DNA of 64,000 nt. Source: a virus. Positions 13,534 to 61,400 of the stretch are shown here, piece after piece. Where the stretch lies: IMG/VR virus record IMGVR_UViG_3300031521_000027, positions 40,214 to 104,213 of that record. The stretch is one strand, 5' to 3'. The stretch's first letter is position 1; each line of letters starts with the position of its first letter. Below the pieces are notes generated by a model. The model was not told where the DNA came from. It saw nothing but the letters and a program-made list of their open reading frames with translations, and ran no database searches. Both the position numbers and the translations under genes were made by a program.

Positions 13534-14986
13534 ACACTCCCAGATCGTCCTCTCGGCCATCTTGGCGGGCAGGCGCGATCTGCTGGAGAAGGCTGTCGCC
13601 CACCTGACGCCAGCCCACTTCCCGGAGAAGGTCCACGCCGACCTCTTCACCATGCTCATGCGCTTCTCGGACTACACCGGGGGCGCGGTCATGCCGCTGA
13701 AGTACCTCGACGACAACCTCCGTGGCCGCATGGAGCCGGGCAAGGCTCAGCTGTTCACCGAGACCTACGAGATGCTGTCGGAGACCACGACAGAAGATTC
13801 TGAGTTCGCGTGGTCCCTCCAGCAGCTGCGCGAGCTGGCTGCCGACAAGACCACAGGCGAAGCCCTGACTGAGGCCATGGAGATCCTGCGCCGAGGCAAG
13901 ACCATCGACAACCAGACCTATCAGGGCCACAACGATGCCCGCGCTCGCCTGCTGGAATCGTTTCAGGAAATCGACCGTGAGCTGGTTCGGCAGGACGCGC
14001 CGGAGGGGGACCTCGCAGACGAGGCCACCGAGATGAAGGCCGACTACGCCGAGCGGAAGAACGCGCGCCTCAAGGGTGTGTCCTCCGGCATCCGGTTCGG
14101 CATCGACGAGCTGGACCGCAAGATCGGTGGGCTCCAGCCGGGAGAGCTGGTGCTGCTCGCGGGCTACTCCAGCGACGGCAAGTCCTCCCTGTGCGTCCAG
14201 CTCGCGTGGAGCGCCGCCGTGGAGCAGGGACAGAACGTGGTCTTCCTGACCACCGAGACCCTGCGTCCCCAGATCCGCCGCAAGATCATCGCCCGCCACT
14301 CCAAGCTGCCGATCTTCGAGACACCCGAGGGCCTTAACACCCGGGATCTGAAGGCAGGCACCTTGACGGATGAGCAGGAACTCATCCTCCCCCGGGTGAT
14401 CGACGACCTCGCCAAGAACCCCGCCTACGGCAAGATCTACATCGCGCAGGTCCCTCGGGCGGCAGGCATCGCCAGCATCGAGCAGAGGCTGCTGCGGATC
14501 CAGCGGAAGTTCAACATCAAGCTGGTCATCGCCGACTACCTCGCGCTGCTGATCGCCGAGCGCAGACGCACCACGGCCCGGGAGGAGTACGCCGAGGTGC
14601 TGAAGAACGCCAAGCTCCTGTCGGTCGCCTTCGACAACGGGCGGGGAGTGGCCTTCGTGTCCCCGTGGCAGGTCTCCAGACAGCACAGGGAGGCCGCAGA
14701 GAACCTCGGGCAGTACACGTCCGCCGCGCTCTCCGAGACGGCTGAGGCGACGAACTCCTCCGACGTGATCGTCAGCCTGCTGGCCCCCACCGACAACACC
14801 GACCGGCACGCCGACGTCACCTTCCAGATCCTGAAGAACCGGGACGGCGAGACGGCCAACGGCATGATCGTCGAGGTCGACTACGCCACCTGTCACTTCC
14901 GCAGCAAGCGGATGCTGGGAGCCCTCGGTACGGGTGGTCTCGACTACTCCACCAACGGCACCATGGAAAGCCTGCTGAGCGCCTGA
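13517..14986 (+). CDS. dnaB: DnaB-like replicative helicase
   Basis: GIDELDRKIGGLQPGELVLLAGYSSDGKS, VIADYL, WQVSR, ILKNRDG; TTG start after GGAGAG (alternative 13505). Confidence 0.92.
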   Translation: MASASEHSQIVLSAILAGRRDLLEKAVAHLTPAHFPEKVHADLFTMLMRFSDYTGGAVMPLKYLDDNLRGRMEPGKAQLFTETYEMLSETTTEDSEFAWSLQQLRELAADKTTGEALTEAMEILRRGKTIDNQTYQGHNDARARLLESFQEIDRELVRQDAPEGDLADEATEMKADYAERKNARLKGVSSGIRFGIDELDRKIGGLQPGELVLLAGYSSDGKSSLCVQLAWSAAVEQGQNVVFLTTETLRPQIRRKIIARHSKLPIFETPEGLNTRDLKAGTLTDEQELILPRVIDDLAKNPAYGKIYIAQVPRAAGIASIEQRLLRIQRKFNIKLVIADYLALLIAERRRTTAREEYAEVLKNAKLLSVAFDNGRGVAFVSPWQVSRQHREAAENLGQYTSAALSETAEATNSSDVIVSLLAPTDNTDRHADVTFQILKNRDGETANGMIVEVDYATCHFRSKRMLGALGTGGLDYSTNGTMESLLSA

Positions 14987-15002
14987 GCTGAGGCGTATCA
15001 AT
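14972..15002 (+). promoter_or_regulatory. Phage class-II promoter (CTGCT-N15-GGCGTATCAAT), leaderless
   Basis: ATG at 15007 lies 15 nt after the GG, as in four other copies. Confidence 0.7.
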
Positions 15003-15006
15003 AGGT

Positions 15007-15568: not shown

Positions 15569-16118
15569 GCTGCTCCGGATCGCCAACGAGAGAGTCTCGA
15601 TCACCAAGGCCTGCAACATGATCGGGATGAACGTCAGCGACTACGCCGCCGCGTCGATGAAGGTCTACTGCCCCTTCGGCGAGATCTTCCATCAGGACGG
15701 TGGAATGTCGAAATCCATGCGGATCTACGCCGAGTCCAACAGCGCCTTCTGCTTCGCTGGGTGCGGCTACTACGACCCGGTCAAGCTCATCTCCACCAGT
15801 AGGGACATCTCCGAGGAAGATGCAGCGGAGGCCCTGCTGGAGGAGACTGGGTACGTAGCACCCAACTATCAGGATCAGTGGGACGCGCTGATGTCCGAGA
15901 AGCCAGTGGTCGACACGGCAGACTTGGCCGAAGCCCTCAAGGTTGCGTGCGCCAGAATGGTCCCGAACTGGGAGGAACGCCAGTTCGATGAAGCGGTCTC
16001 GCACAAGCTCACCCAATGCCTCGCTCTCCTCCGCAAGGTCCACACCGATGATGACGCCACGAACTGGCTGAGCATCACCAAGAAGGTCATGAAGGCAACG
16101 ATGGAGGCACGGGCATGA
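15555..16118 (+). CDS. Stand-alone CHC2 (DnaG-type) zinc-binding domain protein
   Basis: VYCPFGEIFHQD...SMRIY...AFCFAGCGYYDPV; no TOPRIM domain follows. Confidence 0.75.
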   Translation: MERAELLRIANERVSITKACNMIGMNVSDYAAASMKVYCPFGEIFHQDGGMSKSMRIYAESNSAFCFAGCGYYDPVKLISTSRDISEEDAAEALLEETGYVAPNYQDQWDALMSEKPVVDTADLAEALKVACARMVPNWEERQFDEAVSHKLTQCLALLRKVHTDDDATNWLSITKKVMKATMEARA

Positions 16119-16357
16119 GCACGGACGAGAAGCTGGGGAACCTCCCCCAGCTGGAGGGCTGGGTCAACCTCACCGAGGCCGCAGAGATCTTGGGCATCTC
16201 CCGACAGCACGCGTACCGACGTGCACGTTTGGCCAATGAGGGCAAAATGGGTGGCTGGAAGACGGTGTGTCGCATTGGCACCAAACCGAGTTATGTGGTA
16301 GCTCTTTCCGAGCTTCAGGAGGAGCTGCTTGTGACACGCCCGGATCGCAGACGTTAG
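16115..16357 (+). CDS. Small HTH (excisionase/MerR-like) DNA-binding protein
   Basis: WVNLTEAAEILGISRQHAYRRA. Confidence 0.75.
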   Translation: MSTDEKLGNLPQLEGWVNLTEAAEILGISRQHAYRRARLANEGKMGGWKTVCRIGTKPSYVVALSELQEELLVTRPDRRR

Positions 16358-16559: not shown

Positions 16560-16583
16560 TCGGTCACCCCATGGAGGATTTCT

Positions 16584-18309: not shown

Positions 18310-18776
18310 TGAGACCTACACAGGAAATCCGGCGCTTCTTCGCCAAGACCCTTGATGAAGACCGGGGGTACATCACTCCCTGCGTGATCTGGACCGGCAG
18401 GAAGGTGAATGGGTACGGGGTGTTCGATCTCCAGCGCGATGACAACTCCGGCCCGCGTGCTGTGAAGGCCCACCGGTACTCCTACGGACTGCTTCACGGA
18501 GAGCAGCACATCCGCAGCGCCGTGGTGGGTCGCGAGGACGAGATTGACCACCTCTGCTTGCAGCGGGACTGCGTCAGGGAAGGTCATCTTGAACTCGTGA
18601 CCCTGAAGGTCAACCGCCAGCGGATGCACGACGTCCACCGGACAGAGATGTGCAAGAGAGGTCTCCACCTTCGCGCTGAGTTCGAGCGGATCAAGTCGAC
18701 CGGCGCTCCGTACTGCTTGGGGTGTCAGAGGATCAACGATGCTAAGCGTCGTCCTCGTAAGAAGAGGGAGGTCTGA
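18309..18776 (+). CDS. HNH endonuclease
   Basis: CVIWTG..NGYG, AHRYSY, IDHLCLQRDCVREGHLELVTLKVN, C-terminal CKRGLH/CLGC. Confidence 0.9.
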   Translation: MRPTQEIRRFFAKTLDEDRGYITPCVIWTGRKVNGYGVFDLQRDDNSGPRAVKAHRYSYGLLHGEQHIRSAVVGREDEIDHLCLQRDCVREGHLELVTLKVNRQRMHDVHRTEMCKRGLHLRAEFERIKSTGAPYCLGCQRINDAKRRPRKKREV

Positions 18777-18777
18777 C

Positions 18778-19773
18778 ATCGCCACCTTCAGTGGCTGGCT
18801 GACCGGGACCAAGAAGACCCCTGAGCCCCGGCAGATCACGTGGGTGTGCGGGCCGGAGGTCGTGCTTGTGGAGGAGGTCGTCCGGAGCGTCTCGGAGTTC
18901 CTCGCCCCCGAGCCGTGGAACCGGGTCAGCCTCGTGGCCGGAGATGATTCTGAGCGGGACATCTGGGCCGCGCTGGACCAGCACCCGATGGACACCTCAC
19001 CCCGGCTGGTGATCGTCCGGCACGTCGAGAAGATCCATGAGTGGGACCGCTTCGTGCAGTGGGTCAAGGACCGCTCGCGCAACCCCCGGACCTACGTGGT
19101 CATGGTCTCCTCCGAGGCGGCTGTTCCGAAGACCGAGCCCACCCCGGAGGAGCGCAGACACGGTACCCGCCCGGAGCCCCTCCCGCACATAGCCTGTATC
19201 GGATCCAAGGGCCACGTGGTGGAGTGCAAGCCGTTCACCTCGGCCACCGCGCTGCGCTCCGTGGAGTGGGTCCAGTCGAAGGCCCCCATGCGGGACGGCA
19301 TCGCCCGGCACCTGCTCACCCGCTCGAACTGGAACCTGCGGCTGGTCCGCGACATCTGCCTGAAGCTCGCCGTGTTCCCCGGTGAGATCACCATCTCAGT
19401 GGTCAACACCCTGCTGGCCGAGCAGCCCCGGGACAGCTTCACCGACGCCCTGCTGGCGCTGGACCGCAAGACCGCACTGCTCGCCGCCGAGTCGATCCCT
19501 CGCGAGGAGGTCGGGCGCATCATCGGCCTGCTGGACGCGAAGCTCGACAAGGCTGGGATGATCCATGACATGCAGGTGGACCACAAGTCACCCGGCGACA
19601 TGGCCAAGGCTCTGGGTCCGCAGGCGTTCCTGCTCACCGAGCTGATGAACGTCTCCAAGCACTACAACGCCAAGCGCAGGCTCGCGATCCGCAGGACGCT
19701 GGCCGTGGTCGACGAGGCCTACCGCTCCGGGCAGACAACGGGTCTGCTCGAAGTTGTCGTGGCGTTCTGGTGA
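18778..19773 (+). CDS. Clamp-loader subunit, Pol III delta (HolA)-like
   Basis: ITWVCGPEVVLVEEVV...ALDQHPM..SPRLVIVRHVEKI N-terminus and helical collar; start uncertain (ATC at 18778 after GGAGG, or ATG at 18739). Confidence 0.7.
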   Translation: MATFSGWLTGTKKTPEPRQITWVCGPEVVLVEEVVRSVSEFLAPEPWNRVSLVAGDDSERDIWAALDQHPMDTSPRLVIVRHVEKIHEWDRFVQWVKDRSRNPRTYVVMVSSEAAVPKTEPTPEERRHGTRPEPLPHIACIGSKGHVVECKPFTSATALRSVEWVQSKAPMRDGIARHLLTRSNWNLRLVRDICLKLAVFPGEITISVVNTLLAEQPRDSFTDALLALDRKTALLAAESIPREEVGRIIGLLDAKLDKAGMIHDMQVDHKSPGDMAKALGPQAFLLTELMNVSKHYNAKRRLAIRRTLAVVDEAYRSGQTTGLLEVVVAFW

Positions 19774-19784: not shown

Positions 19785-19818
19785 AAGTGGAGCACCCCGC
19801 AGATCAAGGAGAACTGAC

Positions 19819-42681: not shown

Positions 42682-42789
42682 TTCTGAGGGGCCCCATCGT
42701 GTTTCTCGAAAATGCGATTCGGCCCCTCACTCAGATTCCGAAAATAGCTGTGCACTCACCCCGGCAAACGTGTGTGTAGACTCCCCCAC

Positions 42790-43080: not shown

Positions 43081-43102
43081 AGCCTCCCAGCGGCGTACCA
43101 GT
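43072..43102 (+). promoter_or_regulatory. Phage class-II promoter, leaderless
   Basis: Exact consensus; ATG at 43107. Confidence 0.8.
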
Positions 43103-43106
43103 AGCT

Positions 43107-44192: not shown

Positions 44193-44470
44193 CCGGCTTC
44201 TCCCTCCCCGCGTGGACCGGTCGCTCCGCGCCCCCACCGGGAGAAGATTCTGAGCGGGCCCTCTCCCTCACCGACGCGTGGGCTGCACTGGTCCGCATCC
44301 GCAACAGGTCCATGACCCAGACGGAGCTGGCCGAACGTGCGGGGCTGCACCGCTCAGCCGTATCAAAGATGGAGGCCGTCGGTTATCTTCCGACCCTGCG
44401 CACCATGGCCACCTATGCCGACGCCCTCGACATCGAGCTGAACCTCACTTTACGAAAGAAGGCTTCATGA
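44189..44470 (+). CDS. XRE-family HTH regulator
   Basis: MTQTELAERAGLHRSAVSKMEA...PTLRTM..YADALD. Confidence 0.85.
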   Translation: MTGFSLPAWTGRSAPPPGEDSERALSLTDAWAALVRIRNRSMTQTELAERAGLHRSAVSKMEAVGYLPTLRTMATYADALDIELNLTLRKKAS

Positions 44471-46743: not shown

Positions 46744-46874
46744 GTGAAGGAAGATTCTGAGCCTGCTGGCGCATCGAGGCGAAGACTGATAGCGTGAACG
46801 CTGTCAGTACGGCAACTGGACACAAAGCAAAGGAACCCGAGGACGAGATCCTCGGGTCCTTCTGTGTTGTTGGG

Positions 46875-48153
46875 TCAGTAGCGCTTGACTGTCTCCCCCC
46901 TCTTCAGGCGGTTCAGCTCGAACGGGCGGAGCTTGCGGCAGTACTTCCAGCTCCGACGGGACAGGCCGTGGTCGGTGCAGTAGATGAAGCCGGACTCATC
47001 GATCATCGTGATCGGCTTCACGCAGTCGGTCTTCATGTCGCAGTGCAGCTCCACGACCACCGGGGCCGGGGGAGTGCCCCAGCCGCAGTGGGAGCAGACC
47101 CCGTTGTGGATCGTGCCCTTCCGACGCCTGCCGGTGCACTGGGCCATGGTGAGGCACGGGTCCACGCTGGCGTGCACTGGGCAGATGAAGGTGGTGACCG
47201 AGCCGTCGAGGTGACGAGCGCACACGCAGGTCATGATCACAGCGCCTTCGCGGAGTAGGTGATCGACTGCATGACCCCGGTGCCCCAGCTGCGCGTGCTG
47301 TGCACGACGAGGGAGAAGGACAGGCCGGGGTACTGCTTGAGGATCACCCGGCGCACGCGGGCCTTGATCGCGTCAACGTGGCGGTCGAAGTTGCGGACGC
47401 CTGCGTTGCCCCAGCCTGCCTCACTGGACACGGTCACGAGGAGCCGGGTGGTGGAGGGATCGATGCTGGTGGTCACGGTCCAGTCCTTGCGGGTGGCGCG
47501 GAGTTCGGAGAGTTCGCGGGGAGATTCGTACATGGCTGGTGCCCTTCGGTGTGGTTGTTCCGGCTTGATGTCTCAAGTTTACCCCACCCCTGTCCCTACG
47601 TCAAGTCATTTCCAGAAACAATCGAGATCACTCCCGGGCTCAGAATCTTGATACGCCAAAGAGCCCCTCCCCCCGAAGGGGGAGGGGACATCCTCCGGTG
47701 TGAAGATCAGTCGGTCACCACCACCTTCGCGTGGCGAGCAGCCTCGGTGTCCATCTCCGCGCCACAGCTGCACTCGAAGTGGTAGGGGTAGACGAAGTCC
47801 CAGCGGTGGCGGCGGTGGGTCTCCGGGCCCGTGAGGGTGTCGAAGCGGCCACACGTGGCTTCCTTGAAGGCTGCGTAGGTCTTGTAGACCCCGATGATGG
47901 CCTCCGGGTCGAGGGTGAACAGGGTGTCGATGAAGATGCCCCACTCGTCCCACTGGGCGGCGTGCTCGTCGCCGTTGCCTGCACCGAAGTTCGGACGGCT
48001 CGCGCTGTTGCCGGTCAGGCGGATGTCAAAGGAACGCTTCCGGGAGCGGGAGCCCTTCGTCTCGCAGTCGGCCAGCTTGACGCCGACCATGCCCCTCGCG
48101 TGGACCGCCTGCACGAGGTCGGAGTACTTGATGACGTCGGAGTGGATCTTCAT
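46875..48153 (-). other. Three leftward early genes (46875-47240 Cys-rich, 47237-47533, 47707-48153)
   Basis: Each unit has a minus-strand SigA promoter and the conserved leader. Confidence 0.75.
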
Positions 48154-48345
48154 GGCTGTTGCCCTTCCTTACGGGTACCGGGTTGTTCCGGCTTGATGTC
48201 TCAAGTTTAGGACACACTGCCACTCGATGTCAAGCGAAACTGGCAGGAGTTATTTTCGGAAACGAGTTGACACACGTCCCAAGGTAGGTACATAATAGAG
48301 ACATAGCCGGACGCACCGGCTCCTCGAAAGAGAAGGGCATAAGCC

Positions 48346-48654
48346 ATGAGCATCCAACTCACCCACGAGTTCATCGTCTGCAACTGCTGCAACGCGATGA
48401 TCGCCAACAACGAGAGCTGCGACTGCACCCCCGATCAGCACCCCGACGGCCTCGCCGCCTTCACCGGGCTCGCTCCCAACGTCAACGTCGTCCCCGGCGA
48501 CGAGGACTACGGCTTCTGCGACTGGAACCGCTGCGCCGGGTGCGGCTCCACCCTCGCGGGTGACCGTGTCGGGGCCTACGGGCTCACCGACACCGGCTGG
48601 GCTCCCGAGTCCACCTTCGATGACCCGGACGTGGACTGGAGTGAGGGCCTGTGA
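48346..48654 (+). CDS. Cys-rich hypothetical protein
   Basis: CNCC and CAGC motifs; own promoter at 48267. Confidence 0.7.
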   Translation: MSIQLTHEFIVCNCCNAMIANNESCDCTPDQHPDGLAAFTGLAPNVNVVPGDEDYGFCDWNRCAGCGSTLAGDRVGAYGLTDTGWAPESTFDDPDVDWSEGL

Positions 48655-48845
48655 GGCGCTACGCGGCCCTTGCAGCCTCGCTGGAGGCGCAAGGGTGCCG
48701 GATGAAGCGGAAGCGCTCCGGCTGGTGGGTGGGCTTCCCCAACGGGGCCACAACCGCCTTCCACCTCACCCCCAGTGACCACCGGGCAGACCTCAACCTC
48801 CGCGCCACCATCCGGCGCAACGGGCTGGTGTGGCCCTTCGACTGA
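48651..48845 (+). CDS. HicA-like small protein
   Basis: LEAQG...W.V.FPNG....HLTPSDHRA..N....IRRNG resembles actinophage HicA-like proteins. Confidence 0.6.
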   Translation: MRRYAALAASLEAQGCRMKRKRSGWWVGFPNGATTAFHLTPSDHRADLNLRATIRRNGLVWPFD

Positions 48846-49089
48846 AGCTAGGCTGGTCGAGCCCCTCGTTCCCCTTCGACCGGGAGCGGGGGGTTTCCTC
48901 ATGCCCGGACTTGGAGCGTCGAGCCGAACATCCAAGTCGAGGTGGGGTCGAGTGGGACCGTGGGAAGATTCTGAGCGTCCGAGCGCAGCGACACCACCGC
49001 TGACTACGCCTTCGACAACAGCTGGTCGGGGCACTCAGAACAAGCAAGAGCCCCCCGCTCCCGAAGGAACGAGGGGCTGAGCTGGTCGA

Positions 49090-49341
49090 TCAGACTGCGG
49101 GCGTTCCCCACAGCGTGCCGTTCGCGCCAGCGCGGATCATGTACCGCGCCCACTTCCGGGCCTCGGCCTTCAGGCCGCACTTGCCGCCGTCCATCCCGTT
49201 GGCGGGGCCACTGGTCACGACCCAGATCCAGACCCGGCGAATGCCGCCCTTGGCACACGGGCTCCAGATGTCCCTGCGGATCAGGCGGTAGGTCTCGCCC
49301 TTGTAGGTCTCTGTCCCTGCAACGTCTGTGTATCCGGTCAT
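49090..49341 (-). CDS. Hypothetical early protein
   Basis: Conserved leader and minus-strand promoter directly upstream. Confidence 0.7.
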   Translation of the reverse strand: MTGYTDVAGTETYKGETYRLIRRDIWSPCAKGGIRRVWIWVVTSGPANGMDGGKCGLKAEARKWARYMIRAGANGTLWGTPAV

Positions 49342-49511
49342 GGCTGCTGCCCTTCGGTTGTTGTTCCGGCTTGATGTCTCAAGTATAGTACACGTGCGCG
49401 CGTATAGCAACTCGTTTCCAGAAAAAGATTGATCGAGTATTCGCTTGACACTAGCTAGGTACATGCCTTAAACTTGAGACATCAAGCCGGATCAACCGAA
49501 GGGCACCAGCC

Positions 49512-51751
49512 ATGGCTCAGTTCTCACTCACCATCAACCTCGACGGTGAGGCGTTCTCCGAGGAGACCGAAGACCGTATGGACACCCAGCTCGCTCCCGA
49601 GTACGAGCTGCACCGCCTTCTGACCGACATCGCCGTGACCGTGAAGTACGGGACCTTCGAGGGCTCCATCATCGACATCAACGGTCACAAGGTCGGGCAG
49701 TTCGCGATCAACACCGAGGACCCCCAGACCTTCTCCCTCGCACAGGTGCAGGACCGCAACGAGCACTTCGCCAAGGACGCACGCTTCGTGCAGGTGAACT
49801 GACATGACCCGCTTCTACGGTGGCCTGATCAACAGGCTTCAGGAGGGCGCTACGGTGCGCGAGGTCCCCAAGGTGGGGGACGGGGCCACCATGTACCTCT
49901 ACAGCGACAGGCACGCCTACACGGTGCGCGAGGTGAAGGTCAGCCCCAGTGGGAAGACCATCACGATCAAGGCCACCCGGGACCACGCAGTGCGTACCGA
50001 CGGCGGGGGCTTCAGTGAGTCCCAGACCTACGACTTCACCACGGTGGGGGAGCCCGAGGACGGGCAGACCTTCAAGAGCGTTTCAGGAAAGCCGTTCCGC
50101 TCCGTCTACTGGGACCACGAGGCCAACGGCTACCGGATGTCCGAGACCATCCTGCGGGTCGGTCACCGCGACGAGTACTACGACTTCACCAAGTAGCCAG
50201 CTGGGCTCCCGGTCCTCGTGATCGGGAGCCCACACGCACGAGAGGAACAACTAATGGACACCTTCATCCGCGTCGCCGTCCCCGAGGCTGTCACGCTCCG
50301 CACCAAGGAGCTGCTCAGTGGACTGGGCATCGAGGCCAAGTTCGTGGACGACCTTGCCGAGGTCACCGCCCGCGACATCCTCGCCACCTACGCCGGGTGT
50401 GCGGGGGTAGATGATTCTGAGCGGTTCGCTCCCGGCGACCGCTTCATCACCATCGGCACCGACCCGGGACGCAAGGGCATCGTCGTCAGGCTCGAACGCA
50501 ACCTCCGGGTCAATACCACGGTGTGTGTCGTGCTCGACGGTGAGGACAAGGTGATGAGCTTCGGAGCCAGCGTGATGCAGCTCATCGAAGACGCCCTGCC
50601 CGAGGACGAGGAGATCCTCGACGACATCCCCCCGCTCCGGCAGGAGAACGAGGAGCTGAACGAGGACATGGTCTACCGGGCCCTGCGCGCTACACCCAGC
50701 ACTGCCACAGCACAGTCCCAGCACGCAGCTGCGGGAGCCTTGTTCGCCATGCTGCGCTCCCGGCCCTACTCGGCACCACGGCTGAACGAGCGTCAGGTCT
50801 GCAACTTCGTGGAGGTCATGGTCGGCCTCCCCTGCATCACCGGGGCACAGGCAGCCGCCGTGCTCGCACTCGTTTACGGAAAGGAAGTCCAGTCATGACC
50901 GCACTCGACCGCATCGTTCGTTTCTACGGGATCGGTGAGACCATCATCCTCGCCGAGTTCAAGGCAGCCGAGAAGCTGATCAAGGAGTACGTGGACGACA
51001 CCATCGCAGGCATCCGGGCACGTATTTCCTGAAACAGTTGACAGGAGAGCTGCTGTGTCCTAAGCTAGAGACATGAACACAGCAGCTTCCCTGAACTACA
51101 CACTCAACCCCGAGTGCATCAAGGTCGACCGCTTCATGGGCCTGAACATCGTGTTCGTACCCGCAGGCATGGTCTACCGGGTCACCGACGTCAACGGGAT
51201 CAGTTACTTCGAGTCCACCCCTGACCGGCTCATCGCCTTGATGAAGCAGCACGGGCGCAAGCACCTCAAGAGGAAGGCACGTTAGATGGGCAAGTGGGAG
51301 ATCGCCAACAACGGCAGCGGGAAGCGTATCTACTTCCTCTTCAAGGACACCCCCACGGGCACGGAGTACCACTGGAGTGCAGGAGGTAACCTCGTCCGCT
51401 ACGCATCACACATCACTGCACAGAAGGCGGCAGACAAGCTCAACGCCTGACCCCAAGCCACTGTGGCCTCGTTCCTCCGGGAGCGGGGCCACTTGACTTT
51501 GTGTCCCTAACATGAGACAATAGACGTATGAGCTACCCAGACCCTCGGAAGGAGGCCACCTCATGGAATACCGGATCTACCGCAGCACCATCGCTCCCGA
51601 GAACGTCATGCCTGAGCGGGCTGACTCCCAGCTGGAGGCCAGCTTGCTGGCACAGAAGCTCTCCTACCTCGAACCCAGCATCCGCTTCATCGTGAGTGAC
51701 CGGGACATGAACTACCTGTCCAGCTACCTCGACGGCACCTACATCCAGTGA
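49512..51751 (+). other. Early hypothetical genes (49512, 49804, 50254, 51073, 51286, 51563)
   Basis: Promoter- and RBS-supported ORFs. Confidence 0.65.
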
Positions 51752-51831
51752 TCACGAGCCCTCGTTCCTTCGGGAGCGGGGGCACTCGTGTGTGGGTGGG
51801 ATGAAGATTCTGAGCGGGCTCGCGCAGCGCC

Positions 51832-51879
51832 AACGAACGCTTGCCTTAACCGCTCTAGTGCAAACGAACGCTTGCCTTA
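51832..51879. repeat. 17-bp direct repeat AACGAACGCTTGCCTTA x2
   Basis: Copies at 51832 and 51863, upstream of the deacetylase promoter. Confidence 0.85.
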
Positions 51880-51971
51880 TTCACCTGTCCTCAACTTGTG
51901 TCAGTGTCCCAAGTCTGGTACAGTAGAGCTATCGAGGTCGCAAGGACCTCTTCGCAGTAGGAAGTACCCGC

Positions 51972-53201
51972 ATGACCTCAATCATCATTGGCTACACCCC
52001 CAGCTACCTCGGCTGGAAGGGCAGCTACGCCTCCCCCCGCCGTGCCCACCTCGCCGTCGAGCACATCATCGCTCGCGCCGAAGAGGAGGGCGTGGACATC
52101 GAGATCATCGAGCCCACGTTCAACCGGATGCAGGTGGCCAAGGAGCTGTCCCGCGTGCACTCCAAGTCCTACGTGGCCAACGTGCTGCGCGGAGCCCATA
52201 AGGAGCACCCCGGCCAGCAGGGACAGATCGCAGCGCTCATGTTCGAGGGCACCCGCGTGCTCGTGGACAAGATCATCGCCGACGGCTTCATCCCGCAGGT
52301 GTACTTCAACCCGCAGGGTGCCAAGCACCACGCCGGGTACGACGACAGCTCGGGCTTCTGCGTGTTCAACGACATGGCCTACGCCGCCACGGTCTTCACT
52401 GACCGTGGCCTGAAGGTGGCCTACCTCGACTGGGACGTGCACCACGGCGACGGGGTGGAAGCGCTCACCCGCAACAACCCCAACGTGCTCACCGCGTCGA
52501 TCCACCAGTTCGGCATCTTCCCGGGCACTGGGCTGAAGAGCCAGTGGAAGAACAGCGTGTTCAACTTCCCCATGGCAGCTGGAGACGGTGACGAGGAGTT
52601 TCTCGAAACTGTGGCCATCGCCCTTGAGGCCATCAAGGACTTCGAGCCGGACGTGTTCCTGCTCGCAGCAGGGGCTGACGGCCTCAACGAGGACCCGCTG
52701 GGCAGCCTGCGCTACACCCTCGACGGCATCGAGACCGCAGCCACCATGGTGGGCAAGCTCGCCAAGGAGCTGAACATCCCCGTGCTGATCGGCGGGGCGG
52801 GCGGCTACACCCCGTTCACGTTCACCCCGCTGGCATGGCACACCACTGTGTGGGCCATCCACGACGAGCTGAAGAAGGCTGTCAAGAGCATCGACGAGGA
52901 GGCGTTCGACTGGTCGGGCTCCCGCTACGACTGGGACCGCACGGATGGCCACAGCGAGGGCGAGAAGCCCGCTCTGGACGAGGCAATCGAGGAGGGCTAC
53001 AGCAACGACCGTGCAGCTCACATCGACGCCATCATGGACGGACTGGAGGGCATCCCCAGTGACTGCTGGGAGGACGTCCTCACCCGCGAGGAGTACGACC
53101 TCGTGGCATCCAAGATCGAGCCGATCATCCTCGCCGACGCACAGCGTGCAGCAGCCGAGGTCTCCAAGCCCCGGCGCAAGGGCAAGCGGGGTCGCCGCTG
53201 A
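51972..53201 (+). CDS. Zn-dependent histone-deacetylase-family (AcuC-like) enzyme
   Basis: GAKHHAG...GFCVFND, LDWDVHHGDG, SIHQ..FPGTG, AGAD....DPLG, GAGGY. Confidence 0.93.
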   Translation: MTSIIIGYTPSYLGWKGSYASPRRAHLAVEHIIARAEEEGVDIEIIEPTFNRMQVAKELSRVHSKSYVANVLRGAHKEHPGQQGQIAALMFEGTRVLVDKIIADGFIPQVYFNPQGAKHHAGYDDSSGFCVFNDMAYAATVFTDRGLKVAYLDWDVHHGDGVEALTRNNPNVLTASIHQFGIFPGTGLKSQWKNSVFNFPMAAGDGDEEFLETVAIALEAIKDFEPDVFLLAAGADGLNEDPLGSLRYTLDGIETAATMVGKLAKELNIPVLIGGAGGYTPFTFTPLAWHTTVWAIHDELKKAVKSIDEEAFDWSGSRYDWDRTDGHSEGEKPALDEAIEEGYSNDRAAHIDAIMDGLEGIPSDCWEDVLTREEYDLVASKIEPIILADAQRAAAEVSKPRRKGKRGRR

Positions 53202-53214
53202 TCAAGATTCTGAG

Positions 53215-53243
53215 GAGGACCGGGGGCAACCTCGGTCCTCTTT
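53215..53243 (+). terminator. Intrinsic terminator
   Basis: GAGGACCGGG/CTCGGTCCTC followed by TTT. Confidence 0.75.
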
Positions 53244-53331
53244 AGTTTTCGGAAACAGTTGACACAAGGTAGGTACATGCCCTAAACTTGAGACATCAAG
53301 CCGGAACAAACCACACCGAAGGGCACCAGCC

Positions 53332-56300
53332 ATGGACATCACCACTCCCGAGAACATCACCGTCGAGAGCTTCACCTCCCCCGTCCTCACCGGCAGGGAC
53401 CAGCGCAGCCTCAAGGCGTTCGTGCTCGCAGGCATCCTCCCCAACGGTGACCAGCACCGGGTCAGCCTCACGGTCAGCCACGACGCCGACCGCAAGTCCT
53501 TCCGTGTCAGCGTCAGCCGCTACACCCGGGAAGCCAGCACGGACCACGGGTTCGTCGTCGAGCACTACGCCCTCATGGAGGACATCGCATCGCTGGGCGG
53601 GATCAAGGTCGCCCGGTACAGCTTCAAGGCCCTGAACGCCACCTTCCTCGACGCTCTCCCGGTCGCGGTCGCAGCCCTCAAGGATCAGCTGGCTGACTTC
53701 CTGCTCACCCCGACCACGGCCCGCTGATCATGAAGAGCGGCATCGCACTGATCGTGCTGGGCGTTCTCCTGCTCGCCACTGGAGTCATCACTCCCGGCCT
53801 GCTCGGGATCTCCATGGGCCTCCTGATCGCCATCAAGTCCAAGGCCACCCACCGGGTGCCCGTGGTCCCCCATGCTCCGCAGCGGATGATCCAGCCGCAG
53901 GAGCAGGCACCCATGGACTGGAGGGTGGCCCTGTCTGACGTACGCACCCACGTGAAGGACACCGGGTGCCTCGTGCGCAGGAGCGACTTCGAGAGCAAGA
54001 ACGGGTTCTGCCCGAACGGGGGGAGCTACTGGGAGCACGACTGATCCAGACCCAAGAGCACTCGGCTTGTTTCTCGAAAGAGTTGACAGGTCGAGTGCTC
54101 TGTCCTATACTTGAGACATGAGCAACGGTATCAGCGGTCAACCAGCCACCCCCTACAAGCACACCTTCGCCACCGGCACCGAGTGCTACAGGGCCCGTGC
54201 AGCAGCCATCCGCAGGGGTGAGTCCGTGAGTGGGGCCCACCGCACGAAGGAGACCTTCTGGTTCAAGAGCAACGTCAAGGACTGAACAGCAAGAAGCCCC
54301 CGACTCCACAGTGAGTCGGGGGCTCTGCTATGCCCGGGAGGGAGGGGGGAAGATTCTGAGCCTCCCCAGCGGGATCACACCGTGGGTTCGACGGGCGGCT
54401 CCTGCGGATCGGCGGCGTTGGCGGCGGTGTCCAGTGCATCTGCCGACCCGGTCAGCGTTGCGGTGATCGCGTCGATGTCAGCCTGCTGGAGAGTGCCAGC
54501 GTCGAGCTTGGCCTTGAGGTCTTCGAGTGCGGCGATGGCTTCCTGTACCTCCGAGGAGACACGGGTAGCTGCGGCTTGCAGGGCTTCGAGAGCGGCCATG
54601 ATGAGATCCAGCTTTCTGTCGATGGAGTGTGGGTAGTCGTGATGGACGTGGACGTGGATTGTCGCCACTTGTGCGCCCCTCTGGGTTGAAGTGCAGGGAG
54701 TCCCGCAGGCATCACGCTACAAGCACTCACAGTGCGGCTGGCAAGGAGCAAACTTGCCCCAAAGTCGTTTCGACTTGTTTCTCAAAACAGTTGACAACCA
54801 GTGCCCAATGACCTAAGCTAGGTACATAAGCAAGAGAGAGCCCCGAAGGGCACTGGCAGCAAGGCACGGATGCTGAGCTGGAACCCTGAGACTGATCAAC
54901 AGCGCAGGGTGCAGAGCGAAGGGGCTCTCTCAATATCGAGGAAGGCTCCTCCCCATGAACATCCAGTTCACCTGCCCCCAATGCGGGCGGATCGAGAACA
55001 TCGCCACCGCAGTCCACACGTTCCCCTCCTACTCCAAGGCCGTCACGGTCATCTGCTCCACCTGCACGGAAGGCAAGTAGTCATGAGCAACACCCTCCCC
55101 CCGGCCCTGATCAAGGCCATCGACGCCAAGTTCGTCACACTGGGCACCCAGCTGGACGAGGCACGCGCCATGCTGAAGGAGGGCAGGTACGCCAACACCA
55201 AGAACTCCCGCCGCCAGCTCATGCAGAGCATCCAGTACCTCGAAGCCCGGTTGGCTGGCCAGCTGGACATCATGCAGCTCACCCACAACTTCACTGCACA
55301 GGCCCTCACACGCGAGGAGCTGTACCACGGCACCGGCTTCGCTCCCGGCGCGCTCTTCATCCAGATCAACTGATCCAACACTCACGGCCCGTGTTTCTCG
55401 AAAGAGTTGACACGGGCCTCTGTGTGTCCTAAGATAGAGACATGAAGTTCATTGCTGGCGGAATCGCCCTGTACGCGCTGGGCCTGTACCTCGCATCCAC
55501 CCACTTCGGCGGATGGGCGTTCCTCTGCCTGATCGTCGGCACCATCCTGATCCTGAACGCACACGAGTGATCGAGGCACTGGTCGTCGCCCCCACCGTCT
55601 CCCTGATCGGGATGATCGTGTGGGGCATCGTGTACGCCGTGCTCGACGCCATCGCCCCCCACCTACCCACAACAAGATTCTGAAAAGGAGCATCACCATG
55701 GTCTTCGGTATCCCCGCCGCTGTGCGCCTCACCATCGTCGAGGCCATTGGCCCCTTCGTGATCATCGAGGTGGGCAAGAGCGACATCGCACCCGTGCGCT
55801 TCTACGCAGAGAACCGGGACGTCACCCCTGCCGTCCGGCTGAACAACGGCCTGCTCACCTTCGAGGACGCACGCCTCGCCGTGTGCGATGCACTGGAGAC
55901 CTACGCACGCGCCCTGAAGGCTGAGCGCAGCTGCACGTGTGGGGCGCACGAGTACCGGGGCTGCTTCTGCAACCTCACCGTCGCCGAGTTCATGAAGAGC
56001 CCGCACGCAAAGAGCATCTAGGGCTTGACTCTAGCTAGGTACAGTCCTATACTAGAGACATGAGCACAGCAGTCCTCACCCGTGAAGCACCCCGCATGAC
56101 CCGCACCCAGCACGACGCGACGTGTGAGCTGATCGAGGCAGGGGACTGCGAGTGCGAACGACTCGGACTCATCGTCATCGTCATCATCAAGGAAGGCAAG
56201 TAGCCATGACCACCATCACTCCCCTCACGGACGCCAAAGACCTCATCACCTACTCCAAGATCCGCTGCTACGGCGTGCTGGGCGGCACCTACGTCGCCCT

Positions 56301-57426
56301 CGTGAACAACATCAGCGTCGAGCGCGACAAGGTGACCATCTGGGTGCAGCTGGACGACGACAAGGGCACTTCGATGCCCACCATCGTGTGCGCTCCCGAC
56401 ACGGGCATCGAGGTTGTCGAGGCTCCCGATCTCACGCCCTACGGGATCGTGCAGGAGTTCATCCGCCTCGCCCGCATCCAGTGGAGTGACGACGTCGAAG
56501 GTGCAGCTGCTGAGGCTGTGCTGGACGGTCTGGAAGCCCGGCTCCCCCAGATCCTCCAGCGCCAGAACGAGCTGAAGGCGAACTCATGAGCCGCCTGTCG
56601 GGGGAGTGCATCGACTCCCCCAAGGACCCCTGCGAGGGCTCGGTGGAGTACCGCACTGCACTGAGCCCCTCGGGCAAGATGTTCCCCCGGTGTGACAAGC
56701 ACTGGGCAGCGCGCCTGAAGGTGCAGGAGGGCATCAACGCCCGCTACCCCGAGCGCCAGCCTGCTGACTTCGATCCGCTGTACGCAGGCGAGCAGTGGGA
56801 TGAGGACTGAACATGATTCTGAGGGAGGCAACGCCGTGATCTACCTGTACTGCCCTGAGTGCGGCAAGAAGGGCGTGACGCTGCACATCCGCGCCGTCGA
56901 TGACTACTACGGCTGCCGCTACTGCAACTTCGAGTTCTACACCCATGGCACGGACAGGTTCGACCGGCAGGCAAGGGCAGCACTGGCTGTGCGCAACCCG
57001 GGCTTCAAGGTCTAGGGTCTTGACACAAGGTAGGTACATGGCCTAAGCTAGGTACATACCCACCAAGGAAGGGCAATAGCCATGAGCACCATCACCGCAG
57101 AGCTGGTCGAGAAGAACGCCAAGATCCGCATCTACCCCTTCAACGACAGGGGCAGCTCTGAAGGCGTCGTCTTCAGCAAGGACGACCTCTGCGAGACCAT
57201 CGTCATCTGGTGCACCACCCTCGGCAACCCGGACGGCGTCCGCATCGAGTGCGACCCGTCCACCACGTTCGAGGTCATCGAGAAGGCACCCACGCAGATG
57301 ACCATGCCCGAGCTGGTGCGCGAGTTCGCATCCATCCGGGTCCAGATCGCCCTTGATCAGCCCCACTCCCTGCGCCGCCTGTGGCTCATCGTTGCTGAGC
57401 TGAAGAGCCGGGGTGCCCTTGACTGA
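53332..57426 (+). other. Early single-promoter gene cassettes (53332, 53730, 54118, 54955, 55083, 55442, 55698, 56060, 56206, 56586, 57082)
   Basis: ORFs at leaderless or RBS positions behind repeated promoters. Confidence 0.65.
54375..54668 (-). CDS. Leftward coiled-coil protein with His-rich N-terminus
   Basis: IHVHVHHD then Ala-rich heptads; AGAGGG RBS on the minus strand. Confidence 0.65.
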   Translation of the reverse strand: MATIHVHVHHDYPHSIDRKLDLIMAALEALQAAATRVSSEVQEAIAALEDLKAKLDAGTLQQADIDAITATLTGSADALDTAANAADPQEPPVEPTV

Positions 57427-57449
57427 GAGCCCAACAAAGAGCGCCCCTC

Positions 57450-57480
57450 GTGCGTACGGGGGGCGCTTCGGCGTACCAGT
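57450..57480 (+). promoter_or_regulatory. Phage class-II promoter (GTGCG variant), leaderless, overlapping a terminator hairpin
   Basis: ATG at 57485; hairpin at 57439-57468. Confidence 0.75.
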
Positions 57481-57484
57481 AGGT

Positions 57485-58480
57485 ATGACCATGACCGAGC
57501 CCAAGATCATCTGTGTGGGCGACCTGCACGTGTCCGACAAGGCACCTGTGAGCGCCACCGAGTCCTACACCGACGACATCCTCGTGATGCTGCGTTGGAT
57601 CGCCGACTATGCCGCCGCTGAGAAGGCGGATGCGGTCGTGCTGGCAGGGGACGTGTTCCATCACAAGGCCCCAAGCCGCAACAGCCACGAGCTGGTGCTG
57701 AAGATGATCGCTGTCGTGAAGTACTTCGAGGACAAGCAGGTGCGCCTGCTGTGCGTGACCGGCAACCATGACGTGATGAACGGCGTGATGGACAGCGTGC
57801 ATGAGCGCCAGCCACTGGGCGTGCTGTACGAGGCGGGCCTTGAAGAGCTGGTCGGCTGGGATGAAGGGGGCCTGCCCTTGTTCGGTGTCCCATGGCGCGA
57901 GTCGTGGACCGAGCCCGGCGACCCCGCCCTCGCACTGAAGGGGCTGGAAGATTCTGAGGGCCTGCCCCTGAGCAACGGCGTTCTGGTCGTGACGCACGCC
58001 CCGATCTACCCACCCTACGAAGCGCAGAAGCAGATGTTCGAGCTGGTGCAGCTGGAGGGCGAGGACGGGTTGAGTGCAGCCATGGGCAATCAGGGCCACC
58101 TGTACTACGGGCACATCCATGAGGACCACGGCGTCTTCGAGGTCGAGGGCGTGCAGTACGCCAACATGGGTGCCCTGAGCAGGGGGAGCCTGCACGAGTA
58201 CAACCTGAACCGCCAGATCAAGGTCGCTGTGTGGACCATCGAGGGCGGGTTCACTGAGGTGGTCGTGCCCCACAAGCCTGCCTCTGAGGCGTTCCGTCTT
58301 GCCGAGGTCATGGAGGAACGGGGCGAGCGGCTCTCTCTGGAGAGCTTCCTTGCAGCAGTGGGCAATCAGACCTTGGATGTCAGCAGTACGGGCAGCGTGA
58401 TTGACCACATCCGGGGGCGCGCAGACGTGAGCCCGGCAGTCAAGAAGCGCGCCATCACGATTCTGGAGGACGTGTCATGA
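57485..58480 (+). CDS. SbcD/Mre11-like metallophosphoesterase nuclease
   Basis: GDLH, AGDVFH, GNHD, VTHA, GHIH, NMGALSR. Confidence 0.88.
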   Translation: MTMTEPKIICVGDLHVSDKAPVSATESYTDDILVMLRWIADYAAAEKADAVVLAGDVFHHKAPSRNSHELVLKMIAVVKYFEDKQVRLLCVTGNHDVMNGVMDSVHERQPLGVLYEAGLEELVGWDEGGLPLFGVPWRESWTEPGDPALALKGLEDSEGLPLSNGVLVVTHAPIYPPYEAQKQMFELVQLEGEDGLSAAMGNQGHLYYGHIHEDHGVFEVEGVQYANMGALSRGSLHEYNLNRQIKVAVWTIEGGFTEVVVPHKPASEAFRLAEVMEERGERLSLESFLAAVGNQTLDVSSTGSVIDHIRGRADVSPAVKKRAITILEDVS

Positions 58481-61400
58481 AGGACCACATGAAGAAGGCT
58501 GAGGACGCGCTGGAGGCTGCTGCTGAGCCCGGGACGTACCGATCCGACGTGCTGGTTCTCCAGTACGCCTTGGCACAGGCAGAGGGCACCCTTGCCGTCG
58601 CGCACGAGCTGCGCCTGCTCAGGGAATCCATGGAGGGGCGCTGATGGGCAAGCACGACATGAGCCAGCTGCGCACTGAGACGGGATGCACCGCCTCTGTG
58701 TGGTACCAGCACCCCGAGATCGGGGAGCGTCCTGTGGGCGTCTACCTGCGCCTTGCCATGGACGAGAACCTGCCCAATGGGGTGCGCTCTGCTGAGCTGC
58801 GCCTGACCGAGATCGAGGCCATGGAGTTGGCCAAGAACCTGCTGGAAGCAACGAAGGGAAGCATGGAATGAGCAAGCTCTACAAGGTAGGCATCACCATC
58901 ACGGAGGTCGAGACCGAAGAGGTCAACAGGGACCGCTACGACAAGGTCACCACGTCGGGCAGGAACGCCACCACGGTGCTGCTGGAGGGCACCTATGCAC
59001 TGGACACCATCCAGAAGATGGCAGCCCCTCAGATCGTCACGAACTTCCTGCTGGCGCTCGCGGGCGATGGCACGGGCGACCTGCTGAGGGGGCTGTGATG
59101 GCACATCCCGGGATCAAGGTCTTGACCGACGAGATCGCTAAGACGACCAAGCTGCGCGACGATGCCACCACGCACGCCGAGCACGCAAGGGCCAGCGCAC
59201 GGGCATGGGAAGAGGCTGTCCCGCGCCACCAGAAGCACATCGACGAGCTGGCTGAGGCACTGATCGTGCTGAAGAAGGCGCTCTGATGGGTGCCATGGGA
59301 GTCATGTACTACGAGGTCCAGTGCGACCACGTCAACCCTGAGGGGGTGCGCTGCGCGACCAAGACGTCCGATCTGGGCCATGACTTCAGCGCGTGGGCCG
59401 ACCATGGGCAGGCACTGGACGACTGGCTGAGCCACGATGGCAGCTACGACGAGAAGACGGGCGAGACGTTCTGCTACGACCACATCCCGAAGTGCGCTGG
59501 CTGCGGCATCCTGTTGGTCGACGAGGAGCATGAGGACGACTGCCCCACGTGGGTGAAGGACCCGTACAACGCGAAGGCGCTGCTGGACGGCAAGCCGGTG
59601 GACTCATGAGCGACGAGCTGCTGGGCTACACCGAGATGGACGGCGACATCGTCACCCATCTCGCGCCTGTGCGGGACGTGGATGGGCCGAAGAACCTGAG
59701 GGTCGTGGCGCTGTGCCACAACATCCTGCCGAGGAGCCGCTACCAGCTGGGTCGACTTGAGGTCGACTGGAAGCAGGCTGAGGCCACCTACAAGAGCGCC
59801 ATCGAGGCGCGCACCCACTGGCTGCACCAGAAGGGGCTGTGCCGGAAGTGCTGGGTACGGATCGACGCCTTGGCACGCCGGGAGCAGAAGGACGCAGGGC
59901 CGAAGCATGACCTGTCCGTGGTCGAGCTGTTCGGGGAGCCGCACCGCAAGGTGACCTTCGAGGTGAAGGACGCTTGACGCTAGGTAGGTACATGGCCTAT
60001 CCTAGAGACATGATTCTGAGGAGCAACTGATGGGCAAGGCCGACGGCTACACCGGCACCTTCAAGAGGGCCACGGCGAGTACCTCCGACCTGACCCTGTG
60101 CTTGGGCGACCTGCGCGAGCTGGTGGTGCACACCGAGGGCATGGGGGATGCGGCCATGGTGACCGTGTCGGCGCTGTCCCAGTCGCACACCACCGTGGGC
60201 GAGTGCTACCTGAAGCGCCTGTGGGTGCGGGAAGAGCAGGTGGACTGATGGGCGCGATCTTCCCGGGCATCGAAGCCAAGTACCGGAACCTGTGTCAGGA
60301 GTTCGACCCCGAGAGCGGCTTCGCCTGCGACTACCCGCGTGGGCACGTCCCGCTCAGGGTGTCCAAGGCGAGTGGGGTGCTGGAGTACGCCCATGGCAGC
60401 CAGCGTGGTCAGGTGTGGTGGGGCCCTGTTCCTGCCGTGCCGCTGTACCCGGAGCCGCCTGTGGAGAAGACCCACCGTGAGAAGGCGCAGGCGGCACTGA
60501 GGGTCGCCCTGACCCCTCGTGCTGCCACGTCCACGGAAGCGCCGGGCACCCAGATCATGATGCTGATGGGCATCGGTGAGGCCTTGCTGGCGCTCGAAGA
60601 GACCATCCGTACCCGGTCAGAGCCCGACCTCTCCGACGAGCACGTTGCTACGACGCTGAACTCCATGCTGACAAGGGACGATGAGCCGGGCCCTGTGGTG
60701 GGCTGCAAGAGCGTGCGTGACGGCAAGCTGCCCTGCCCGGAGCGGTTCAACAGGGGTGAGCGCGCAGAGGACCGGGCCCGGTGGTGCCGGTTCTGCAAGG
60801 CGACTGTCCCGGACTACGACCCGAAGCCCCGGAACTACGAGCAGGAGAGGGGCTTCTGATGGGTACCCCGAGCACGGGCGTCTGCAAGCACTGCGGAGGC
60901 CAGATCTACTACGACCTGAAGGCCACCTACATCGGTGGGCCGAAGCTGCTGCGCCCAGAGATGGCCGGGATGGACGCGTCCTCCAAGCACCTCGGGCCTG
61001 CGGAATGAGGGCTGCCCACCTGCGGCTGGTGGAGGAGAACCAGATCCCAGCCTCCATCGCCGATCTGGCCGAGGTCGTGCAGCGCGCCGTGGAGGTACGC
61101 ACCGACTGGGAGGGCCTCCAGCTGACCGTGATGCGGGACGGCTCCATCACCTACGACATTCAGGAGAAGAAGGAATGAACGACGAGGAGTACGCCGAGCT
61201 GGCCGATGAGGTGGGCCGCGAGATCGTGGCCGCACTGGAAGCCGCAGGCGAGTACCGGATGCTGTCCTTGCTGGGCACTGCGCCGGGCACGTTCCGCACG
61301 GTGGCCGACGCTGCGATCCGGACCACGCTGGCATGGCGGGACGCTCAGGAGCCGGGCATCTGGGACACGATTGGGCCCAACCTTGCCCGCATCGCCGACG

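Follow-up and report, generated by a model that had tools for sequence, protein, structure and literature searches.

Introduction

Among polar sites that control transcript elongation, only those of the immunity repressors of a single group of temperate mycobacteriophages have been documented well. These sites, the stoperators, are asymmetric, are present in many copies and keep one orientation with respect to transcription (PMC6550527; PMC9283540). Other short elements of fixed orientation include the ops site of RfaH and the lambdoid nut/boxA elements, which are linear, read during transcription, passable and followed by terminators downstream, and of which an operon has one or two, close to its 5' end. 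The phages T5, tf and the phiKMV-like group carry localized single-strand interruptions at strand-specific consensus words. Here we describe a short polar word with the core GATTCTGAG in a stretch of 64,000 nucleotides (hereafter the window) that covers positions 40,214 to 104,213, the last 64 kb, of the virus record IMGVR_UViG_3300031521_000027. The word is polar with transcription, evenly spaced, concentrated in the early region, set at the ends of transcription units and conserved within a clade. We tentatively favour the reading that a phage factor docks on it and, under certain conditions, blocks or insulates host RNA polymerase, with the sites laid out like stoperators.

The record is linear, 104,213 bp long, 64.4% GC and 84% complete according to CheckV, and it represents an uncultured, ~104-kb, high-GC, apparently lytic phage of actinobacterial type. 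Almost all of its genes lie on the + strand, and the annotation places structural genes first, then a replication block (SNF2-type helicase, DnaB-like helicase, family A polymerase or PolA, UvsX/RecA-like protein, endolysin and a 'DNA topoisomerase' PHROG) and then a long run of small genes from ~34 kb to the window end. With corrected gene calls the window holds three leftward units, just one of them multi-gene, and non-coding DNA makes up 10.9% of the genome. When 38 kb of the window were compared by megablast with 50,697 phage records, no DNA-level match appeared; the closest isolate is Microbacterium phage Magritte (PolA 48% identity, syntenic replication block), whose genome has zero copies of GATTCTGAG.

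The word resembles the stoperators of Cluster A phages (L5 gp71, Bxb1 and TipsytheTRex repressors; PMC6550527, PMC9283540) in being an asymmetric site of ~13 bp, in having ~20-35 copies per genome overwhelmingly in one orientation with respect to transcription, in lying in short intergenic spaces and over starts and stops with one copy at an early promoter, and in its lineage-specific spelling. It differs in that this phage looks lytic and has its own sigma factors, and in that its sites are packed, evenly spaced, into a single ~28-kb early region, nine of them in genes. An initial annotation, made from the letters of the window alone, had named a stoperator-like repressor site among its options; the resemblance of layout stands, whereas no gp71-type repressor, integrase or resolvase was detected. 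Because the searches for such a repressor and for signs of lysogeny came back empty, the word appears by analogy to be stoperator-like at most and not a member of the stoperator family, and the same layout is met here in an apparently lytic, uncultured lineage without a recognisable repressor.

Copy number and consensus

GATTCTGAG occurs 17 times on the + strand of the window and once on the - strand (47639-47647), and 19 times on + and once on - in the whole record. The initial annotation had all 18 window coordinates right, as it did the AA or AT that precedes each of them and the lack of copies in the tail-gene block; the exception to the prefix is a copy outside the window, at genome position 25900, which is preceded by GG. 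Dinucleotide-preserving shuffles of the window give a mean of 0.54 copies and a maximum of 3. The enrichment persists in the codon-preserving shuffle that the annotation had proposed, in which synonymous codons are permuted within genes and each intergenic block is shuffled separately: against the 19 copies on +, the average over 300 such shuffles is 0.40 (at most 3 in any one of them), and for the - strand it is 0.33.

A position table of the copies yields the consensus R-S-A-W-GATTCTGAG-S with 12-13 conserved positions, the short form being (G/C)A(A/T)GATTCTGAG, of 13 bases. Within 25 bases on either side, conservation is confined to positions -4 to +10, apart from a purine-rich lead-in. AW-prefixed near-copies are GATTCTGAA at 55676 and GTTTCTGAG at 61834, and the tally for the genome is 20 exact copies and 2-3 variants; the layout counts below use 21 family members. 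Sites are named by the first base of the core.

Selection on nucleotides rather than on the peptide

Nine copies genome-wide lie deep in coding sequences, every one in the frame GAT-TCT-GAG, and eight of these are in the window, in line with the eight coding copies that the initial annotation had read as (E/D)DSE. Asp-Ser-Glu tripeptides in all called genes are spelled GATTCTGAG in nine of ten cases and GACTCCGAG in the tenth, even though 13.7% of the Asp codons in this genome are GAT and 4.2% of the Ser codons are TCT; the chance rate of the GATTCTGAG spelling is ~0.005 per tripeptide. The DSE 9-mers of a distant relative, G003, follow codon usage (GACTCCGAG four times, GACTCGGAG and GACAGCGAG three times each, GATTCTGAG once), and at the DnaB site G003 has GAT-GAC-GGC-GAG where this phage has GAA-GAT-TCT-GAG. 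The word is selected at the nucleotide level. Since it is written in genes even with the rarest codons and is co-oriented with transcription, it is a real DNA- or RNA-level signal. To this extent the initial interpretation, a nucleotide-level signal co-oriented with transcription, is borne out by the codon shuffles, the rare codons and the flipped copy.

Layout in the early region

Seventeen of the 21 family members fall within 33.9-61.8 kb, i.e., ~28 kb. The 15 sites from 42,680 to 60,012 are separated by gaps of 665-2062 bp (mean 1238) with a coefficient of variation of 0.29, as against 0.94 for random placement; none of 100,000 simulations was as regular (P<1e-5), and none of 20,000 had so large a minimum gap. 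The spacing of the sites is more regular than that of the promoters, and the in-gene copies fill stretches that have no intergenic space.

Orientation follows the genes: all 19 + copies lie in DNA transcribed rightward, and the single - copy lies in a leftward operon. This reversed copy has a perfect consensus, stands between two genes of the sole multi-gene leftward operon and is in register with the spacing series. A Chi-like site, one of the options of the initial annotation, is weakened by that intact, in-register copy, which follows the leftward operon, and by the concentration of 17 of the 21 copies in ~28 kb of a 104-kb genome.

Placement is likewise far from random. Intergenic copies number 10 of 21 (P=2.6e-5 against the non-coding share of the genome), and two more overlap a start or stop codon. 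A + copy is present at three of three convergent junctions (46753, 48967, 54352) and at none of three divergent, promoter-bearing junctions. A hairpin scan at -17 kcal/mol is noisy in a GC-rich genome, and only the strongest hairpins were used; five copies lie within 0-71 nt of these, those at 47639 (-), 51806, 54352 and 48967 being 12-71 nt past them. The copies at 53206 and at genome 25900 stand directly ahead of terminator hairpins. The earlier remark that many copies lie at gene ends or beside terminators holds.

Six or seven copies adjoin a ribosome-binding site in the pattern GATTCTGA-GGAGG / -AAAGGAG, namely those at 33926, 55676, 56815, 60012 and 61834 and two in G004, a fragment of a close relative described below. 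The genes 56836-57015 and 55698-56021, neither of which has its own promoter, begin 12-13 nt downstream of a copy, and because such promoterless genes lie behind copies, the word must be passable under some conditions.

Promoters of three kinds accompany this layout. SigA-type promoters number 11 between 42 and 61.5 kb, against 2.0 expected. The middle promoters are bipartite, CTGCGT-N17-GGCGTACCAGTA, and promoters of this type lie at window 13055, 19776, 29454, 32667, 43094, 45641 and 57472 and at genome 5825 and 6339, often 13 nt before a start; the late promoters are sigma-28-like (GGCCGATCTTC, nine copies), stand ahead of packaging and structural genes and lie mostly outside the window. 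A sigma-70 r2/r4 protein is encoded at 12297-13028. The word itself was considered as a sigma-dependent bipartite promoter and rejected: there is no -35 or other partner within 25 nt, and several copies stand directly before terminators.

Conservation among relatives

The closest relatives are the IMG/VR fragments G001, G002 and G004, which derive from one ~87%-identical phage and cover window -26 to 41.4 kb. The DNA comparison with this relative ends at window ~41.4 kb, before the dense site region, and protein proxies were used beyond that point. All five sites common to both phages are kept, with changes only at the degenerate W or from G9 to A. The 13796 site is unchanged although its flanks carry synonymous changes; the 18946 site differs in G004 and G002 only at W (T to A); the genome 25900 site is unchanged; and the 33926 and 37953 sites read GATTCTGAAAA in G004, the latter, which holds a start codon, being kept there as ATGATTCTGAAAA. 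Homology between this phage and G004 stops exactly at the 33926 copy, behind which this phage has an extra open reading frame absent from G004 (33943-34162; ~228 nt, ~72 codons), with TCTGAGGAGG at its left boundary and ACTGAGGTGG at its right.

G003 is a complete relative of 128 kb with ~70% nucleotide identity in core genes, and of the copies only that at 18946 is kept in it. GATTCTGAG is not enriched in G003, k-mer searches with and without mismatch for a polar word of its own returned only promoter-like and palindromic words, and its early region has almost no genes in common with that of this phage. A G003-like contig from a metagenome-assembled genome, found by scanning genome contigs with early proteins, carries no polar word either. 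The early-protein scans of viral, metagenome and genome contigs revealed no close relative with flanks; the best metagenome match, a 1.3-kb contig at 66%, has no word. G007 (46% GC) and G005 are unrelated for the purpose of this comparison.

Beyond the reach of the DNA comparison, the proteins that contain the word serve as a record of it. Among the 12 clusters closest to the Mre11-like protein (69-100% identity), 9 keep [ED]DSE, within a linker that is hypervariable in sequence and length, and the motif is absent in relatives at <=68% identity, G003 and Magritte included. In the ORFan encoded at 44467-45288, EEDSE is invariant in five of five homologues, down to 40% identity and within an indel-rich stretch, and in two of the homologues an upstream extension holds another EDDSE, whose coding context differs. 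Because the word is kept in the ~87% relative and in these protein proxies and lost in G003-type relatives, it marks out a clade and has long been held in place. Selection is attested with unusual clarity: by the rarest codons in nine of ten DSE tripeptides, by a peptide frozen in hypervariable linkers and by strikingly regular spacing.

As a side observation, G003 (loci L006-L012, whole genome) has 26 copies of CTCCAGAG on the gene strand and 1 on the other, where 4.2 are expected (~6-fold). They are mostly read xCT-CCA-GAG, with the rare codon CCA, and the site homologous to genome 10772 reads GAT-CCA-GAG. The repeat may be a faint counterpart of the word or may reflect coding, and it looks coding-driven.

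A proposed conditional roadblock and its alternatives

The reading that we favour supposes a reader encoded by the phage itself. A sequence-specific phage protein would dock asymmetrically on the word in duplex DNA and, while present, would halt or delay host RNA polymerase that reaches it from upstream. The sites would in this way divide the sigma-A-driven early region into segments of ~1.2 kb, reinforce weak terminators and shield the convergent leftward genes from rightward read-through, and as the factor accumulated the phage would shut down its early and middle genes. We infer the existence and identity of such a reader, duplex DNA rather than nascent RNA as its target, and a stop rather than a go effect, from the layout of the sites. 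The roadblock is favoured because copies lie at all convergent junctions, behind weak terminators and on a promoter start, and because the layout matches that of stoperators. Any block must be conditional, or the effect of the word positive, because copies lie in needed genes such as the DnaB-like and Mre11-like ones and before genes that have no promoter.

Several points weigh against a roadblock. The nine sites in needed genes and the several copies 8-13 nt before promoterless gene starts are awkward places for one, and even spacing is not among the reported features of stoperators. Copies directly before hairpins (53206, genome 25900) would be redundant for a roadblock, and an RNA or pause element fits them at least as well; more generally, the data do not separate duplex DNA from nascent RNA as the target. 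No reader protein was identified among the scanned candidates: Pfam and PHROG scans of ~50 early proteins returned only an XRE-type helix-turn-helix (HTH) protein (44189-44470, whose own gene holds a copy of the word), an HTH_17 protein (16115-16357), a weak ParB/RepB-like HTH match (~42790-43080), a ProQ_C-like domain and two sigma-like proteins. For a homologue of L5 gp71, the best tblastn match in this 84% complete record (E=0.08) spans 23 residues of an XRE helix-turn-helix only, and phmmer against all called proteins found nothing. Integrase (PF00589) and resolvase (PF00239) are absent from the record, again at 84% completeness, so that nothing hints at lysogeny, the state in which stoperators work. 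As to a partition system, only the weak ParB/RepB-like HTH at 42829-43080 was seen, in a record from which ~16% of the genome is missing. WhiB, Lsr2 and HNH proteins are likewise absent from the record.

A bolder reading, which we regard as rather doubtful, is that a lytic actinophage with a three-tier sigma cascade uses a ~1.2-kb ruler of one-way 13-bp sites, placed even in essential genes and read by a new factor. It is just as doubtful that such a factor, unrelated to the Cluster A repressors, controls the passage of RNA polymerase or marks transcripts for early shut-off or insulation. If true, the ruler would extend a stoperator-like principle beyond lysogeny, to temporal shut-off and to the insulation of early genes. 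Finding the reader would reveal the means by which large actinophages silence or insulate their dozens of tiny early units of transcription, and might yield a compact stop or tag for transcription in high-GC hosts that depends on orientation.

The alternative that survives best, possible if somewhat less persuasive than the conditional roadblock, is that the word takes effect while polymerase elongates, on the non-template strand or in the nascent RNA (GAUUCUGAG), as a site of factor loading or pausing or as a tag for cleavage or decay, with about one tag per transcript, comparable to ops/RfaH, nut/boxA or T4 RegB. RegB of T4 cuts at GGAG beside ribosome sites, and six or seven copies of the word stand directly 5' of a Shine-Dalgarno sequence. 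The strict co-orientation with transcription, the flipped copy included, would follow from such a role, as would the ~1 copy per promoter-defined unit between 48 and 60 kb, the copies that adjoin the 5' foot of terminator hairpins (53206, genome 25900) and the fact that transcription has to traverse the word. The elemental pause pattern is G-10 Y-1 G+1, which T6/G7 of the word with G/C at -3 fits. Of the possible frames, coding copies occupy only the one that has two rare codons, and this could leave the RNA free of ribosomes; a ProQ C-terminal-like protein is encoded among the early genes.

Other observations speak against an element of this kind. Copies past terminators (47639 on -, 54352) exist only on read-through RNA, an RNA tag needs no spacing more regular than that of the promoters, and the 12-13 conserved positions exceed those of any linear endoribonuclease site known to us. 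Rfam scans gave no matches and the flanks hold no conserved structure. No NusG-family gene (PF02357) is present in the record, though such a factor may come from the host. Compared with ops and nut the word lacks a boxB-like hairpin and has ~20 evenly spaced copies, many of them at the 3' ends of units; its copies are mostly at unit ends or in genes, not in 5' leaders.

Less likely again is a polar site of DNA metabolism, at which the strand is nicked or cleaved, ends are processed as at Chi, or synthesis is primed. The near-total strand bias, together with a copy number, a consensus length and a lineage-specific occurrence like those of the nick sites of T5, phiKMV-like and tf phages, gives this reading some appeal, as do copies both within and between genes and a ~1.2-kb spacing that suits a distance-dependent process on DNA. 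Mre11-like and RecA/UvsX-like proteins are encoded. The candidate enzyme is a putative TopoVI-A/Spo11-like protein of 303 aa (38367-39278; PHROG 6247, 'DNA topoisomerase'), which has no Pfam or PDB sequence match and in which a YY motif and a Toprim-like E...DxD, as in TopoVI-A/Spo11, can be made out by eye; its homologues are spread over 76 phage records with many different hosts, some annotated as topoisomerase VI, and its gene is present in the word-bearing G004 and absent from G003, which is of the wordless type. A tie between this gene and the word finds no support in Microbacterium phage Fizzles, which has a TopoVI-A-like homologue and only a palindromic repeat, no polar word. Unlike the known nick sites, the word has one copy that flips with the local gene direction, and its copies cluster in the early region (17 of 21, not genome-wide) at stops, starts, terminators and convergent junctions; the HNH nuclease class is missing from the record. 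A link with GANTC methylation or restriction was also discarded, GANTC words being not unusual overall.

It is improbable that the word serves mainly as a boundary or linker for the exchange of gene cassettes between related phages, with little regulatory function. The start-associated sequences of Cluster K and the PeSL cassettes of T4-type phages are, like the word, short, co-oriented with genes and found at junctions of small early genes, and PeSLs lie at gene-exchange points. Here homology with G004 ends exactly at the 33926 copy with the extra frame behind it, the early region is almost wholly unlike that of G003-like relatives, and homologues of the 44467-45288 protein hold their second, upstream EDDSE in another coding context. 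Yet the support from homology ends is a single junction, and nine copies lie deep in conserved genes where no exchange is seen. A stretch of 9-13 bp is short for homologous exchange, and each copy seems to remain under selection, given the even spacing and the strict choice of the rarest codons. Compared with start-associated sequences and PeSLs, only 6-7 of the 21 copies lie 8-13 nt before a start, promoter hexamers and a conserved stem-loop are lacking, nine copies are deep in coding sequences and others sit at convergent junctions.

The idea that the word only reflects coding (preference for an acidic EDSE peptide), chance or composition is virtually untenable and was refuted for practical purposes by the dinucleotide- and codon-preserving shuffles (0.4 copies in the latter): nine copies do encode (E/D)DSE, a peptide conserved in two protein families, but twelve lie outside genes or at gene edges, the synonymous codons never vary and are the rarest, and the hypervariable linkers in which the peptide sits make a constraint on it unlikely.

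Individual sites

The intervals below include the two-base prefix and are on the + strand unless stated. The leftmost copy, AAGATTCTGAG at 13794-13804, lies in the DnaB-like helicase gene 13517-14986, where it reads GAA-GAT-TCT-GAG, as it does in G004 and G002. The next, ATGATTCTGAG at 18944-18954, is in gene 18739-19773, just 5' of PolA, in the frame D-D-S-E, and is the copy that G003 also keeps. At the beginning of the early region, the copy at 33924-33934 lies at the 3' end of gene 33632-33943 with the next start codon 8 nt on, and that at 37951-37961 contributes its ATG as the start of gene 37951-38259, 3 nt past the stop of 37681-37947.

The evenly spaced series opens with the copy at 42678-42688, whose first TGA is the stop of gene 42448-42681 and after which comes a hairpin containing TTTCTCGAAA. 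Three in-gene copies follow: at 44244-44254 in the 5' part of the XRE-type HTH gene (peptide GEDSER), at 44909-44919 in the ORFan gene 44467-45288, and at 45601-45611 near the 3' end of gene 45285-45638, 6 nt before the CTGCGC -35 of a middle promoter that has GGCGTACCAGT at 45639-45649. The copy at 46751-46761 is intergenic at a convergent junction, ~75 nt before the bidirectional terminator 46835-46857, beyond which lies the leftward gene 46875-47240. The sole reversed copy (47639-47649, -) lies between the leftward genes 47707-48153 and 47237-47533, 12 nt past a terminator hairpin and 20 nt ahead of TTTCTGGAAA and a leftward promoter. At the second convergent junction, the intergenic copy at 48965-48975 is past gene 48651-48845 and hairpin 48859-48896 and before the leftward gene 49090-49341.

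Further right, the copy at 50411-50421 is read D-D-S-E in gene 50254-50898, for which a homologue search returned no match. The intergenic copy at 51804-51814 lies 16 nt past hairpin 51753-51790, which itself comes after gene 51563-51751. Between it and the putative promoter of a deacetylase-like gene, a direct repeat, AACGAACGCTTGCCTTA, occurs twice at 51828-51880. That gene (51972-53201), which encodes a protein of the histone-deacetylase family, is followed 5 nt past its stop by the copy at 53204-53214, which directly adjoins a terminator hairpin and T-run (to 53249), with an early promoter next. The copy at 54350-54360, at the third convergent junction, follows the bidirectional terminator 54288-54329 at a distance of 23 nt, and the leftward gene 54375-54668 has its stop 15 nt further on.

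The variant AAGATTCTGAA at 55674-55684 stands 13 nt before the start of gene 55698-56021, directly 5' of an AAGGAG ribosome site, and the copy at 56813-56823 stands between gene 56586-56810 and the promoterless gene 56836-57015. The copy at 57948-57958 is in the gene for the Mre11/SbcD-like phosphoesterase (57485-58480; peptide LEDSEG). The copy at 60010-60020 coincides with the predicted +1 of an early promoter (TTGACG at 59974, TATCCT to 60003), 9 nt before gene 60030-60248, and the degenerate variant ATGTTTCTGAG at 61832-61842 lies at the junction of genes 61564-61854 and 61851-62153. Outside the window, at genome 25900-25942 (14.3 kb before the window start), a terminator hairpin after gene 30 has GATTCTGAG on its left and the one-mismatch GATCCTGAG on its right.

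Other repeated elements and genes of the early region

Besides the word, the early SigA-type promoters carry conserved words past the -10: TAGAGACATG at window 35722, 37295, 51066, 55435 and 60003, and TAGGTACAT at window 48285, 49456, 53270, 54819, 56036, 57031 and 59985. In several cases the ATG of TAGAGACATG, 7 nt beyond TAnnnT, serves as the start codon, a spacing that points to leaderless mRNAs. The palindrome TTTC-NN-GAAA occurs far more often than expected (window 42702, 47609, 49415, 51025, 54070 and 55394, and many more within genes) and in several early promoters adjoins the upstream side of the -35, so that it looks like an operator for a dimeric regulator; it has GAA/TTC half-sites in common with the polar word (GAA-GA-TTC-T-GAG).

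Between early units lies a family of terminator-like hairpins, GCCCCTCGTTCC-TTCG-GGAGCGGGGGC, at 48859-48896, 49049-49078 (reverse), 51463-51492 and 51753-51790, some of them without a T-run. The 8-mer ATTCAGGA occurs nine times on + and never on -, against 0.37 expected, nearly always within genes (window 12570, 20895, 26754, 28224, 29644 and 61158; genome 20122, 21133 and 25033). Among the early genes, that at 36416-36793 encodes the protein with a phage ProQ C-terminal-like domain, and that at 62150-62896 encodes an RlaP-type nucleotidyltransferase, of a family in RNA-repair pathways.

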